NCBI GenBank assembly: GCA_963754655.1
Contig: CAVWGN010000001.1
Location: 3,040,001 to 3,104,000 of the forward strand
Reading direction: 5' to 3'
DNA from: an uncultured Chlamydiae bacterium
GTDB taxonomy: Bacteria > Chlamydiota > Chlamydiia > Chlamydiales > Parachlamydiaceae
DNA length: 64,000 nt
The notes beneath the pieces are model-generated. The model was not told the DNA's origin, made no database searches, and worked only from the letters and a program-made list of their open reading frames with translations. Of the stretch, positions 58,787 through 60,614 are shown in pieces; position 1 is the stretch's first letter; the number at the start of each line of letters is the position of its first letter. The translations under genes and the position numbers were made by a program.

Positions 58787-60614
58787 GCTAAGAGAGGAGC
58801 TAAGGCTAAGCGACGCCTTTAGTCGTCGCTGCCGCGGCGCTTCGCTCTTAACTTAACCATAAGAGGTGTGAAAGTGTCCCAATACGCAAAAATTATAGAG
58901 AAGGGCGTCGAATCAATAGAATGGAGGTCCCCCTCCGGGGAACAATTAGATTTCTCGTGAACCCACAGCTGCGCTTGCGCTTAGGCTGTGGGCTACAAAA
59001 AGAATAGCGCCAAGCGCTAAATTTAAGCCTAAAAACACTGTGCATGATCACTAAAGTTCTGCAAATTTCAATCTCCCAATTGCACAATCACATGTAAGGT
59101 CGCTCGAAAGGCAATCATTAATTTTTCTTATGAGAAGAAAAAAAGATCAACATTGTTTAAGATCATATTGGGATCAAATGAGATAATTCCAAATTTGCAT
59201 AACTTTAGTGATCCTTTCACCTTACGCAAGCGAGGTCAAAGAATCAGTGCTATCCCTTAAATAACCAAATAGCTTGATTTGTTTAATAGCCTGAAAGGCT
59301 TCAAAGAAAATAGCCCAGGGCATCGCCCTGGGGCAGATTGATCCTCTACATGTAGTCTGAAGGACTACAAGAGAATCATCTATCCCCAACATGTTTTCAT
59401 CAAACTTAATTTCATATTTTTTAGAAATTCGCAGTACTCTTTGAAATGTCATTGTTTATGGGTTCTTTTTGACTCCCTTTTTGTTCGTTACCTTGTACTT
59501 TGCCATTGAGTAAGCTGATTAAGGAGGTTAAGCAAGGATCTAACTGGATAAAAACAAATGGGGAATCGAGTTTGATGAAAACATGTTTGGGATAGATGAT
59601 TCTCTTGTAGTCCTTCAGACTACATGAAGAGGACCAATCTAACCCAGGGCTAGGATGTTCATTTTGTGCAAAAAATGAGCTTTATTTTTCACAATAATTG
59701 GCATAGTTGAATTGAAGGTCGCATGTTTATGCCGTCCTTTCAGGACTCGATGTCTTTTTGATAGAAACCCAGGCCTCCGCTTCGCTGCGACCTGGGCTGT
59801 AACATGACGGCCCTTCAGGCCTTAACAAGAGATGTTTAAGTCTCTCTTCTATAATCCCTAAATCATCTTTTTGTTAAGGCCTGAAGGGCCGGCCCTTCAG
59901 GCCTTAACAAGAGATGTTTAAGTCCCTCTTCTATAGTCCCTAAACCATCTTTTTGTTAAGGCCTGAAGGGCCGTCATGTTACAGCCCAGGTCGCAGCGAA
60001 GCGGAGGCCTGGGTTTCTATCAAAAAGACATCGAGTCCTGAAAGGACGGCATAAACATGCGACCTTCTATTCAACTATGCCAATTATTGTGAAAAATAAA
60101 GCTCATTTTTTGCACAAAATAAACACCCTAGCCCAGGGCCGGGACTTAACAAAGAACTGTTTTTGGGCTTGATATTCGTCGAGTCAATTTAACAACACAC
60201 CGCCTTTAACAGGCTGTAGAGGCATATTTTCCGAAAATGACGCGAAAAACATCAAGCCCAAAACAGTTCTTTGTTAAGTCCCGGCCCTGGGCTATTTTCT
60301 TTGAAGCCTTTCAGGCTATTAAATAAATCATGCTATTTGGTTATTTAAGGGATCTCATTGCTTTTTTAACCTCGCTTGCGTAAGGTGACTGATCCTGTAA
60401 ATGCTTTTAGGCTTAAATTTAGCGCTTTGCGCTATTCTTTTGTAGCCCACAGCCTAAGCGCAAGCGCAGCTGTGGGTTCACGAGAAATCCGGATTGTTCC
60501 CCGGAGGGGGGCATCGGTGCTATTGATTTGACGCCCTTCTCTATAATTTTTGCGTATTGGGGACAGTCTTACACCTCTTATGGTTAAGTTAAGACCTGCT
60601 CTTCCTCTCTTAGC
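58787..60614. mobile_element. Giant nested palindromic locus 4 (about 1.83 kb): elements F, H, G/REP-B, A and D
   Basis: Inverted pairs at 58787-59034/60405-60614, 59046-59068/59191-59213, 59217-59321/60284-60388 and ~59325-59406/59569-59650; self-palindromic inserts at 59651-60130 and 60140-60283. Confidence 0.9.
59381..59595. pseudogene. Scrambled remnants of an IS200/RAYT-type Y1 (HUH) transposase
   Basis: Plus strand 59479-59562 reads FCSLPCTLPLSKLIKEVKQGSNWIKTNG. Minus strand 59474-59381, allowing several frameshifts, reads SQKExHKxMTFQxEYCEFLKKYEIKFDExHV. Confidence 0.7.

Follow-up and report, generated by a model that had tools for sequence, protein, structure and literature searches.

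How several kinds of short inverted repeat come to lie inside one another within a single intergenic region is the question raised by positions 58787–60614 of the window (the whole 64,000-nucleotide stretch of chlamydial DNA analysed here). At this locus an inverted-repeat block fills the 1.8-kb gap between two forward-strand ORFs (57628–58764 and 60965–62908). A search of positions 58400–61000 returned 16 inverted-repeat pairs, and the longest exact inverted repeat in these 2.6 kb measures 115 nt, compared to a mean of 12.0 and a maximum of 16 in 100 mononucleotide shuffles. Thus, the nested inverted repeats reported in the initial annotation of this DNA are real, and the motifs it quoted are present as written, namely CCCACAGC..GCTGTGGG, the TIRs of elements H, G and D and the flanks GTGATCCTT/CTGATCCTG. 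Its image of a Russian doll is apt in that layers are enclosed by other layers, but the arrangement is not strictly concentric: H and G are located side by side within F, and B, A and D side by side within G.

A genome-wide blastn check of the modules revealed that every layer is a member of a genome-wide repeat family. The block as a whole produced 1324 HSPs against the genome, and its modules cover 85,491 bases, corresponding to 2.7% of contig C1. In our reading the block is quite probably an accumulation of mobile repeats that carry no genes; these fall into two kinds by mechanism, each feeding on the other. G, H, D and A resemble MITEs in having TIRs and no coding capacity, their sole ORFs being short and overlapping the palindromes, and copy-specific target duplications are found for five of ten G pairs, 18 of 67 A copies and only seven of 71 D copies.

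The outermost layer, F, consists of a left arm (58787–59045), which includes the hairpin CCCACAGC..GCTGTGGG at 58962–58992, and a right arm (60397–60614). The two arms pair in four collinear pieces (58846–59037 with 60402–60594) that are 91–100% complementary. The arms are composite. Module E (58785–58848), a 64-bp hairpin-rich unit, is found in the left arm and missing from the right, and an outer part of the arms forms a palindrome of its own at C1:299387–299460. F is a low-copy family, as two of 17 hits span at least 90% of the left arm, and at C1:740340–740692 it encloses H alone. For E, 56 of 71 blastn hits span at least 90% of the module. E is homologous to the outer end of a ~300-bp palindrome located 3' of the gene Y1g (local score 41; shuffles, mean 17.9 and maximum 27). 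The significant likeness is confined to the E part, and the whole F arm was therefore rejected as kin of this Y1g-associated palindrome. Inside F, H (59046–59213) is a 168-bp MITE-like element with 23-bp TIRs (59046–59068 and 59191–59213) that are 96% complementary. Two of its eight hits span at least 90% of the element, and kindred TIR pairs are present at C1:740408/740553 and C1:90003/94002. No target duplications of H or F were seen.

G (59217–60388) is a 1172-bp MITE with cargo, bounded by a 20-bp TIR, TCACCTTACGCAAGCGAGGT, and by arms of 105 nt (59217–59321 and 60284–60388) that are 92% complementary. It is flanked by the target duplication TGATCCT, the left copy of which (59209–59215) is followed by one extra base before the TIR and the right copy of which (60390–60396) is preceded by one extra base after the TIR. 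In the genome, 41 hits per arm span at least 90%. As judged by eye, AT-rich, non-palindromic direct repeats of 7–9 bp flank five of the ten paired G copies under 5 kb; these repeats differ between loci. G occurs empty at C1:473108–473294, with A at C1:1214611 and C1:2502788 (where the flanking duplications differ between the two), with B at C1:166828 and with D at C1:1071075. This independent occupancy bears out the earlier proposal of several distinct non-autonomous families, each also present elsewhere, since G can be empty or hold just one of A, B and D. The hairpin CCCAGGGC-atc-GCCCTGGG at 59314–59332, which is intact in the window, is the middle hairpin of a Y1c-type REP module and also forms the centre of the empty G. 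In the module at 59288–59386, 44 hits start and 51 end. G with D and the second copy of G with A show one-base deletions placed symmetrically in the two stems. IS256-like and IS5-like elements were considered as parents of G or A and rejected, their TIRs being unrelated to those of G and A.

Within G, B (59325–59650) carries the remains of a transposase unit. Its arms (59325–59422 and 59553–59650; 98 nt) are 89% complementary and contain the hairpin GTAGTCTGAAGGACTAC at 59352–59368 and its inverse at 59607–59623. Using tblastn, residues 61–88 of the transposase Y1c/e were located at 59485–59565 on the plus strand (82% identity, E 4e-11) and residues 111–145 at 59509–59396 on the minus strand (E 0.002). 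The hairpins of B also flank the genes Y1c and Y1e. From these relics, B is best read as a dead, palindromised Y1c/e gene with its own hairpins.

The genome has nine matches to PF01797, seven of which have whole frames. It encodes six RAYT-like Y1 paralogs, four with inverted flanking repeats on both sides, and Y1d, Y1c and Y1e are each HUH genes bracketed by inverted copies of a repeat. Y1d is present in one full copy, and both of its flanks are sequences found 190–320 times. The inner arm of A lies on both sides of Y1d and aligns to the Y1d 3' flank. Y1d thus pairs a single-copy gene with a high-copy repeat (at least 148 matches to the Rfam family RF01687, below). Y1c/e departs from this single-copy rule, with two full copies and one truncated copy within 6 kb. 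The Y1 proteins score 22–25 bits with the NCBIfam model REP_Tyr_transpos (cut-off 80) and 63–73 bits with the IS200 model (cut-off 55). They are only remotely similar to IS608 TnpA (E 4e-04), and no E. coli RAYT structure was among the PDB hits at E up to 1. Of 60 other genomes in the family, 32 have genes similar to Y1d.

A (59651–60130; 480 bp) has a TIR shell of ~30 nt, inside which lie two REP modules, each of three hairpins and facing inward, and a central unit in duplicate. Its arms (59643–59828 and 59953–60138; 186 nt) are 98% complementary, and its core is an inverted doublet. There are 67 paired copies of A in the genome, the commonest length being 390–399 bp. The centre is made up of two tandem 82-bp hairpin units, termed C (59808–59890 and 59890–59973), for which 348 and 358 hits span at least 90% when both orientations are counted; individual A copies have one to four C units. 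The left flank of A, ACCCAGGGC (59642–59650), forms the end of B as well as one of the stems of a split hairpin, while GCCCAGGGC (60131–60139), located between A and D, is the right copy of the direct repeat flanking A; the two agree at eight of nine positions. Non-palindromic exact direct repeats of at least 7 nt flank 18 of the 67 A copies. A whole hairpin lies on one side of 18 of the 67, five of which also have a non-palindromic direct repeat, and this is the pattern expected of insertion into one stem. At 15 of the 67 the flanks are inverted with no duplication, the element replacing the 3-nt loop instead of duplicating the stem, as in G with A.

Across 55 A copies, 96 variants are mirrored in both arms versus 118 that are one-sided; permuting the arms between copies gave a mean of 15.6 mirrored variants and a maximum of 28. 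Such co-evolution of the A arms is easier to reconcile with a Y1-like life cycle that depends on hairpins than with a DDE life cycle. The TIR shell of A probably belongs with the DDE-moved MITEs, although its TIR (TAGGGTG..) is only loosely similar to the TIRs of the hAT-like ISs described below (TGGGATG.., CGGGACT..).

Each arm of A matches the Acido-Lenti-1 family (RF01687), the left at 59768–59822 on the plus strand (36.4 bits, E 7e-06) and the right at 59959–60013 on the minus strand (36.4 bits); both window copies fall just below the gathering score (37 bits), as does, at 36.4 bits, the 3' flank of Y1d. Genome-wide there are at least 148 matches in both orientations, and 11 of the 148 listed exceed 37 bits. 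We fetched 36 loci encoding Y1d homologues, using a single-protein query, and scanned 20 of them, all in other phyla; RF01687 adjoins the Y1d homologue at seven of the 20 and lies on both sides at five. Further Rfam matches in the block, to plant and animal microRNA precursors, were far under their thresholds and were taken as long-hairpin artefacts.

D (60140–60283) is a 144-bp MITE with the ends CGGGACTTAACA...TGTTAAGTCCCG, and the inverted-repeat pair around it (60129–60166 and 60257–60294; 38 nt) is 97% complementary. In the window it is flanked by GCCCAGGGC and by GCCCTGGGC (60284–60292), the latter being where the right G arm starts and also the right-hand stem of the split hairpin; these flanks are unlike at their centre. 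D is present at 73 loci, 44 in leading and 29 in lagging orientation relative to the replichores, with no clear bias, and ends of the form GCCNNNGGC lie on either side of it. The flanks are neither direct nor inverted repeats in 50 of 71 copies. A non-palindromic direct repeat is found at only seven of the 71, and six have inverted flanks in which the 3-nt loop was replaced with no duplication of the stem (compare G with D). Most D copies have no duplication, so that simple cut-and-paste followed by decay is a poor account of the D family unless recombination between its copies, or movement within larger composites, is assumed as well.

The anticipated autonomous transposase with matching TIRs was found for D; none was found in this genome for A, G, H or F. 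The full-length parent of D is a 1794-bp IS (C1:426683–428476) with a 16-nt perfect TIR equal to that of D and with the flanks GCTCAGGGC and GCCCAGGGC. Its large ORF is 28% identical over 378 residues to the transposase of an 1865-bp IS (E 1.7e-30). There are ten copies of the 1865-bp IS, nine of which are flanked by perfect 9-bp direct repeats resembling GCCCWGGGC, as judged by eye. The structural model of its transposase (mean pLDDT 86.7) has Hermes as its best Foldseek match (E 1.3e-05, TM 0.42 on query length), followed by ISCth4 and the P element transposase. As modelled, the 1865-bp IS has the features of a hAT-like bacterial IS: an RNase-H-fold DDE domain, a helical insert, short TIRs and a fixed-length duplication. 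By its TIRs and the paralogous ORF, D is taken to be a deletion derivative of a 1.8-kb IS encoding a paralog of this Hermes/hAT-like transposase.

Flanks within three mismatches of GCCCWGGGC were found for D (131 of 142) and A (107 of 134), compared to 148 of 20,000 random genomic 9-mers. Judged from these flanks, the data suggest that D, A and the full-length IS encoding the paralog share the target GCCCWGGGC. An IS5-like element is located inside the hairpin GTCCTTTCAGGAC of A in at least nine of ten copies. The idea that IS elements target REP hairpins was therefore well founded, both for the 1865-bp IS in GCCCWGGGC (nine of ten) and for the IS5-like element in GTCCTTTCAGGAC (at least nine of ten).

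In the mechanism that we propose, the first kind of mobile repeat would be the structured ends of Y1 (HUH) single-strand-DNA transposase genes, RAYT/TIRYT-like, each end being a three-hairpin module composed of a small hairpin, a CCCAGG..CCTGGG hairpin and another small hairpin. Its putative members are the core of A, as an inward-facing pair of the Y1d flank module, B, as a dead Y1c/e gene, and E, as the end of the Y1g repeat. The second kind would be TIR-bounded MITEs moved by DDE transposases, to which G, D and probably the TIR shell of A belong. The 1865-bp hAT-like IS inserts in GCCCWGGGC, the stem of the middle hairpin; with the target in a hairpin stem, every REP module and every G centre becomes a landing pad. 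The hairpin GTCCTTTCAGGAC likewise serves as the landing pad of the IS5-like element. The stacking appears to come about because elements of the other kinds land by preference in the hairpins of one kind, and existing junk may also be where a gene-dense genome can afford insertions.

We infer the order of events and the enzymes that would have moved A, G, H and F. F is likely to have come first, followed by H, by G at the H/F junction and by B, A and D at the central hairpin of G, with the central unit of A duplicated at the end. Three loci show the series F>H>G>A (this one, C1:87.8–94.4 kb and C1:2564612–2565499), and one of them has a deletion spanning the H/G junction. At least the F-H-G-A part was probably inherited as a block from a paralogous copy. 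The earlier suggestion that the elements insert into one another is hence right in that the families nest, but the F>H>G>A series was probably copied as a block and not built by separate insertions on site. A bolder, tentative version, which we regard as possible and rather doubtful, holds that Y1/HUH hairpin ends of Acido-Lenti-1 type are the dedicated landing pad of an uncatalogued bacterial hAT-like family and its MITEs (D, perhaps A), and that the two systems co-evolve, hairpin-templated correction included. Such correction would keep long palindromes symmetric (the mirrored variants of A, the symmetric indels of G) and would also account for copies in which the insert replaces the loop without duplication.

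Other readings of the block were weighed against that of two interacting kinds of repeat. All layers might be REPIN-like and moved only by the Y1 (HUH) enzymes of this genome, the direct repeats being by-products of a near-palindromic target. In support of this are the six RAYT-like paralogs, four with inverted repeats on both sides, the mirrored variants of the A arms, which far exceed permutation, the 15 of 67 A and six of 71 D copies that sit in hairpins with no duplication, and the ends of the form GCCNNNGGC that bound D on both sides. Y1 transposition, as in IS200/IS605, is not known to leave target duplications, however, and the AT-rich, non-palindromic 7–9-bp duplications of G, the TIRs that D has in common with an IS encoding a DDE-fold transposase paralog (Hermes-like) and the non-palindromic direct repeats at 18 of 67 A copies make it unlikely. 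The same three observations leave the initial annotation, which named HUH transposases as the movers of REPINs and BIMEs, only partly supported; the tie between REP hairpins and HUH Y1 transposases holds for Y1d, flanked by the A arm, and for B with its Y1c/e relics, but the set is not uniformly HUH-mobilised. It is also improbable that the mosaic arose mainly by recombination and fold-back copying between dispersed repeats (including segmental duplication, arm-to-arm correction and exchange at shared GCCCWGGGC motifs), with site-specific insertion playing a minor part here. The duplications of G differ from locus to locus, nine of ten copies of the 1865-bp IS have 9-bp duplications, 18 of 67 A copies stand beside a whole hairpin (five also with a non-palindromic direct repeat), and the block is asymmetric, with H on the left only and B, A and D in series. 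Such a history would nevertheless suit the recurrence of F>H>G>A at three loci, one with a deletion across the H/G junction, the unrelated left and right flanks of 50 of 71 D copies, the symmetric one-base deletions in both stems of G with D and the second G with A, and the frequency of mirrored variants in A.

That the block is a functional structured RNA or regulatory element (an Acido-Lenti-1 small RNA, terminators or an mRNA stabiliser), its repetition reflecting function, agrees with the 36.4-bit RF01687 match and with the position between two same-strand genes, but is very unlikely: the motif brackets a transposase gene here and at seven of 20 loci of other phyla, has at least 148 copies in both orientations and receives IS insertions. 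Least credible of all is that the nesting is an assembly artefact in which repeats were collapsed or mis-joined. The repeats are indeed numerous and 87–99% alike; yet the assembly consists of two contigs with no N, unique genes stand on both flanks, arm identity varies by layer from 89% to 100%, and paralogous dolls with the same order exist. In two soil-metagenome runs (word shares 0.14 and 0.07) short contigs lay on single repeats and none spanned the block, and these contigs neither support nor contradict the assembly. Metagenome scans with a 27-nt piece of the end of the upstream gene and with the 20-nt TIR of D gave 0 matches each, and a plasmid search using contig C2 gave short unrelated matches only. 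Among the 20 nearest genomes, in which the flanking genes are 65–73% identical, none is collinear across the gap, and no empty orthologous site was found there.

Under the reading of two kinds of repeat that feed on each other, the locus offers a concrete and testable account of Russian-doll repeats, in which the hairpin stem of one element is the target of another. Obligate intracellular bacteria are expected to carry little active mobile DNA in their genomes. This pattern is broken here: one 3.1-Mb genome contains six RAYT-like genes, three ISs and at least eight repeat families that interact, and the identity between IS copies (98.5–100%) indicates that all three ISs are recently active. 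An orphan Rfam 'small RNA' is tied to transposase ends in yet another phylum, and, for a Hermes-like bacterial transposase that is uncurated, the full-length IS and D form a natural IS/MITE pair. Blocks of this type interrupt short-read assemblies and could be mis-annotated as RNA genes. Our literature search turned up no chlamydial study of REP, REPIN or MITE elements, a weak negative since the ranking favoured chlamydial names.

REP/REPIN elements with RAYT/TIRYT Y1 transposases were reportedly treated by Nunvar in 2010 and by Bertels and Rainey in 2011. These systems, the REPtrons and TIRtrons, are covered in Di Nocera 2013 (PMC3733652), excerpts of which name the PVC superphylum and no chlamydial species. 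As in REPtrons and TIRtrons, a single-copy HUH Y1 gene is bracketed here by inverted copies of a hairpin module with hundreds of occurrences; inverted doublets that lack a gene exist, several paralogs each have their own repeat family, and changes in the arms are mirrored. In contrast to REPtrons, the proteins fail the NCBIfam RAYT model and are only remotely similar to IS608 TnpA, the module has three hairpins and about 100 nt, and the A doublet faces inward within a 75-nt shell with TIRs, with direct repeats in 18 of 67 copies. Moreover, the host in this case is a chlamydia. The BIMEs of E. coli are mosaic clusters of REP hairpins in alternating orientation with other short motifs. The block is a similar mosaic of alternately oriented hairpins and other short motifs, but its modules measure 64–480 bp, include true MITEs with TIRs and TSDs and a transposase relic, and reach four nesting levels.

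The loop of palindromic units is the insertion site of IS1397. REP-targeting IS elements are described in Tobes & Pareja 2006 (PMC1525189). The ISs here likewise insert site-specifically in repeat hairpins, the 1865-bp IS in GCCCWGGGC and the IS5-like element in GTCCTTTCAGGAC, but the main enzyme has a Hermes/hAT-like fold and belongs to no Pfam family, and the IS of its paralog spawned the MITE family D. The Acido-Lenti-1 RNA motif (RF01687) is listed in Weinberg 2010 (PMC2864571). RF01687 is matched over its full length by hairpins two and three of the Y1d flank, whereas the window copies, at 36.4 bits, are under the gathering score of 37 and their setting speaks for a DNA element and not for a small RNA gene. 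The palindromic elements of Rickettsia and the Correia elements of Neisseria are short palindromic non-autonomous repeats that proliferate in compact genomes. The repeats described here are likewise short, palindromic, non-autonomous and proliferating in a compact genome, but they have no sequence relation to those elements, and several families are stacked via shared hairpin targets. Thus, the kinds of element are already known (REPIN/RAYT, MITE, REP-targeting IS), and their combination at this locus is unusually rich.

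In the block of nested inverted repeats at 58787–60614, elements of two kinds are stacked together: Y1 transposase hairpin ends and MITEs of the DDE type. An inverted-repeat search of the window returned 16 inverted pairs in the block region, among them the arms of A (59651–60130; arms of 186 nt, 98% complementary), of G (59217–60388; 105 nt, 92%), of B (59325–59650; 98 nt, 89%) and of the outermost module F (four collinear pieces, 91–100%), together with D (60140–60283), H (59046–59213) and the two 82-bp hairpin units (C) in the centre of A. The longest exact inverted repeat of the block is 115 nt, against a mean of 12.0 and a maximum of 16 in 100 shuffles, which confirms the inverted repeats described in the initial annotation, whose quoted motifs are all found in the window sequence. 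Its picture of a Russian-doll palindrome holds in that the layers are nested, but the nesting is only partly concentric: F encloses H beside G, and G encloses, side by side, B, A with its two C units, and D. A 64-bp module, E, is present in the left F arm only. The block lies between two plus-strand ORFs, one upstream (57628–58764) without a Pfam family and one downstream (60965–62908) encoding beta-propeller and Ig-like repeats. The 647-residue product of the latter has a signal-like N-terminus; a motif resembling SVAFSPEVSGNLFAAVA (lactonase-type beta-propeller) recurs in it some eight times, and TIG and Big_3_5 domains come after these repeats. A and its hairpin module occur again in the window at 6497–6906, 44834–44888 and 62973–63264.

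The 2-kb block region gave 1324 blastn HSPs against the genome studied (3.16 Mb in two contigs, zero N), and blastn of each module revealed that every layer, and not only those said earlier to recur at other loci, is a genome-wide family. Matches covering at least 90% of the module numbered 56 of 71 for E, 2 of 17 and 2 of 20 for the two F arms, 2 of 8 for H, 41 of 69 and 41 of 63 for the G arms, 172 of 328 and 171 of 332 for the A arms, 348 of 410 and 358 of 427 for the C units, and 146 of 159 for D; for the B arms, 82 and 102 of 113 matches reach 50% cover. Because palindromic modules match in both orientations, the number of loci is about half the match count, and D is present at 73 loci. 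The modules jointly occupy 85,491 bases, or 2.7% of the large contig (C1), on which the window spans 3040001–3104000, and the 923 module matches, with overlaps removed, form 397 arrays. Among multi-module arrays, A-C-A is the most frequent (19 full and 13 partial), while the window array, with 14 modules over 1810 bp, is the longest among those containing G, F or H.

G is empty at C1:473108–473294, where its central hairpin reads CCCAGGGC-gct-GCCCTGGG, and carries A alone at C1:1214611, C1:2502788 and other loci, B alone at C1:166828 and D alone at C1:1071075; F carries H alone at C1:740340–740692. Each layer can thus exist apart from the others. Two further loci repeat the order F, H, G, A, at C1:2564612–2565499 and at C1:87.8–94.4 kb; in the latter copy an IS has inserted into the F hairpin, other inserts add about 3.4 kb, and a deletion crosses the H/G junction. 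Part of the doll was therefore copied as a block.

The genome contains nine matches to PF01797 (HUH transposases), seven with whole frames. One of them, Y1a, scores 147.7 bits on the NCBIfam IS200 model and is a canonical IS200 transposase. The other six, Y1b to Y1g, show 38–48% identity to Y1d and a common C-terminal extension; they pass the IS200 model weakly (63–73 bits vs a cut-off of 55) and fall below the cut-off of the RAYT model (22–25 bits vs 80). Their best PDB match is IS608 TnpA (E 4e-04). The single-copy Y1d gene (C1:395750–396268, minus strand) is bracketed on both sides by sequence that occurs 190–320 times. Its 3′ flank, which contains in order the hairpins GTCCTTTCAGAAC, CCCAGGCC..GACCTGGG and GGCCCTTCAGGCC, can be aligned to the inner arm of A; an inverse copy lies upstream of the gene. 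The Rfam family Acido-Lenti-1 (RF01687) fits hairpins two and three of this flank end to end, with 36.4 bits vs a gathering score of 37, and has at least 148 matches in the genome (150 candidates scored), 11 of these above threshold. The 20 relatives scanned have 0–9 matches each, apart from one genome, from another genus in the same family, with 107; these 107 are mostly outward-facing pairs about 100 nt apart, the inverse of the inward-facing pairs in A. Of 60 other genomes in this family, 32 have Y1d-like genes (E up to 1e-10). Two of 36 fetched loci with Y1d homologues are labelled Chlamydiae MAGs (84–89% identity), others belonging to Planctomycetota, Verrucomicrobiia, Acidobacteriota, Bacteroidota and further phyla, and RF01687 adjoins the gene in 7 of the 20 loci scanned, on both sides in 5.

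The Y1c and Y1e genes (C1:2542085–2542555 and 2544215–2544685), which differ by 2%, lie with a truncated third copy within 6 kb (C1:2542085–2548293); RAYT-like genes are normally single-copy, and this cluster is unusual in that respect. The hairpin GTAGTCTGAAGGACTAC flanks these genes. The interior of B matches their residues 61–88 on the plus strand (82% identity, E 4e-11) and a remnant of residues 111–145 on the minus strand (E 0.002); B is a decayed, palindromised Y1c/e gene unit. A Y1c-type module, with AGCCTGAAAGGCT, CCCAGGGC-atc-GCCCTGGG and GTAGTC..GACTAC in this order, straddles the inner end of G and the B arm at 59288–59386 (44 match starts, 51 match ends). The palindrome 3′ of Y1g has an outer end homologous to E (score 41 vs a shuffle maximum of 27). 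The proposed link between REP-type hairpins and HUH transposases is upheld by the Y1d flanks in A and the Y1c/e relics in B.

The TIR of G (TCACCTTACGCAAGCGAGGT) has 49 matches in the genome with up to 4 mismatches, including ten plus/minus pairs under 5 kb. Direct repeats of 7–9 bp, read by eye one base outside the TIR, accompany five of the ten (TCAAGTAA, TGATTTAAG, TTATTAA, TTAGTAA and, in the window, TGATCCT); no autonomous partner sharing the G TIR was found in this genome.

A hAT-like IS of 1865 bp is present elsewhere in ten copies (97.5–99.9% identity, TIR TGGGATGAGAAAAC) and has ORFs of 102 and 419 residues without a Pfam match. Perfect 9-bp direct repeats, read by eye, are found at nine of the ten copies (GCCCAGGGC, GCCCTGGGC and GCCCAGAGC twice each, GGCCTGGGT, ACCCCGGGC, TCCTGGGGC and GCTCTGGGC), each of these sites being within a hairpin stem of another repeat. 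Relatives of the protein are annotated as 'hypothetical proteins', and many of them come from contigs about 1.7–2.1 kb long. The transposase model from 32 sequences (mean pLDDT 86.7) best matched the Hermes hAT transposase (E 1.3e-05), followed by ISCth4 and the P element transposase. At its right end, the IS (TGGGATGAGAAAAC-GAGGGCTAA; C1:69947–71811 and nine other copies) resembles by eye a B arm minus its hairpin, and TGGGATGAG at this end corresponds to the final codons of Y1c-type genes (W-D-stop region), a likeness that could reflect shared ancestry or chance.

D, which the initial annotation placed among non-autonomous elements, has a partner IS with the same TIRs. The single full-length IS with D TIRs, a 1794-bp element at C1:426683–428476 flanked by GCTCAGGGC and GCCCAGGGC, has a 16-nt perfect TIR identical to the D ends and two ORFs, the larger with 28% identity over 378 residues to the 419-residue protein of the 1865-bp IS (E 1.7e-30). 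Thus, D is a MITE of this IS. The IS itself is inserted at the hairpin that forms the centre of a G element.

GCCCWGGGC was matched with at most three mismatches by 131 of the 142 flanks of D and 107 of the 134 flanks of A, compared with 148 of 20,000 random 9-mers; in the window, A lies between ACCCAGGGC and GCCCAGGGC, and D between GCCCAGGGC and GCCCTGGGC. Among 67 A and 71 D copies, respectively, a non-palindromic exact direct repeat of at least 7 nt was seen in 18 and 7, a whole hairpin abutting one side in 18 and 9, inverted flanks in 15 and 6, and none of the three patterns in 27 and 50. In most D copies the left and right flanks are unrelated, and in some copies a 3-nt loop is replaced by A or D with no duplication. 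At C1:413200–416500, D alternates in a tandem array with a palindrome of about 370 bp whose hairpins resemble the Y1f 3′ flank. An IS5-like 1.48-kb element lies inside the hairpin GTCCTTTCAGGAC of A in at least nine of ten copies; it encodes DDE_Tnp_1 and DUF772, and its copies are 98.5–99.6% identical (e.g. C1:8212–9691, 553817–555296 and 1830421–1831900). Seven copies of an IS256-like 1325-bp element (99.9–100% identical; e.g. C1:263812–265135 and 2297347–2298670) were examined, all inside other repeat elements and six with 8–9-bp duplications.

The A arms co-evolve. Across the 175-nt arms of 55 copies, variants from the consensus were mirrored in both arms 96 times and one-sided 118 times, and permutation of the arms between copies gave a mean of 15.6 and a maximum of 28 mirrored variants vs the 96 observed; arm divergence is 1.2% within and 2.9% between copies. 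In G with D and in one G-with-A copy, one stem mirrors the other in having the same one-base deletion. These palindromes are subject to some symmetrising process or to selection for pairing, and the mirrored changes in the arms of A leave room for a life cycle of this element that depends on Y1 or on hairpins.

The initial interpretation stands as to a multi-family set of nesting elements and Y1-tied hairpins but not as to uniform HUH mobilisation, since G and D are DDE-type. Three factors apparently drive the stacking: insertions target hairpins specifically, those that land in junk are tolerated, and composites are copied. Among the papers listed by our literature search, none deals with REP, REPIN or MITE elements in chlamydiae. 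ISs that target REPs are the subject of Tobes & Pareja 2006 (PMC1525189). TIRYT and TIRtron elements, some in Acidobacteria, are defined in the available portion of Di Nocera 2013 (PMC3733652), which names the PVC superphylum without chlamydial species, and the available portion of Weinberg 2010 (PMC2864571) treats Acido-Lenti-1 only in a table; a 2026 preprint has a single mention of this motif. The kinds of element are known. New here are the way they are combined, their occurrence in a chlamydia, and D paired with a parent IS that belongs to an uncurated Hermes-like family.
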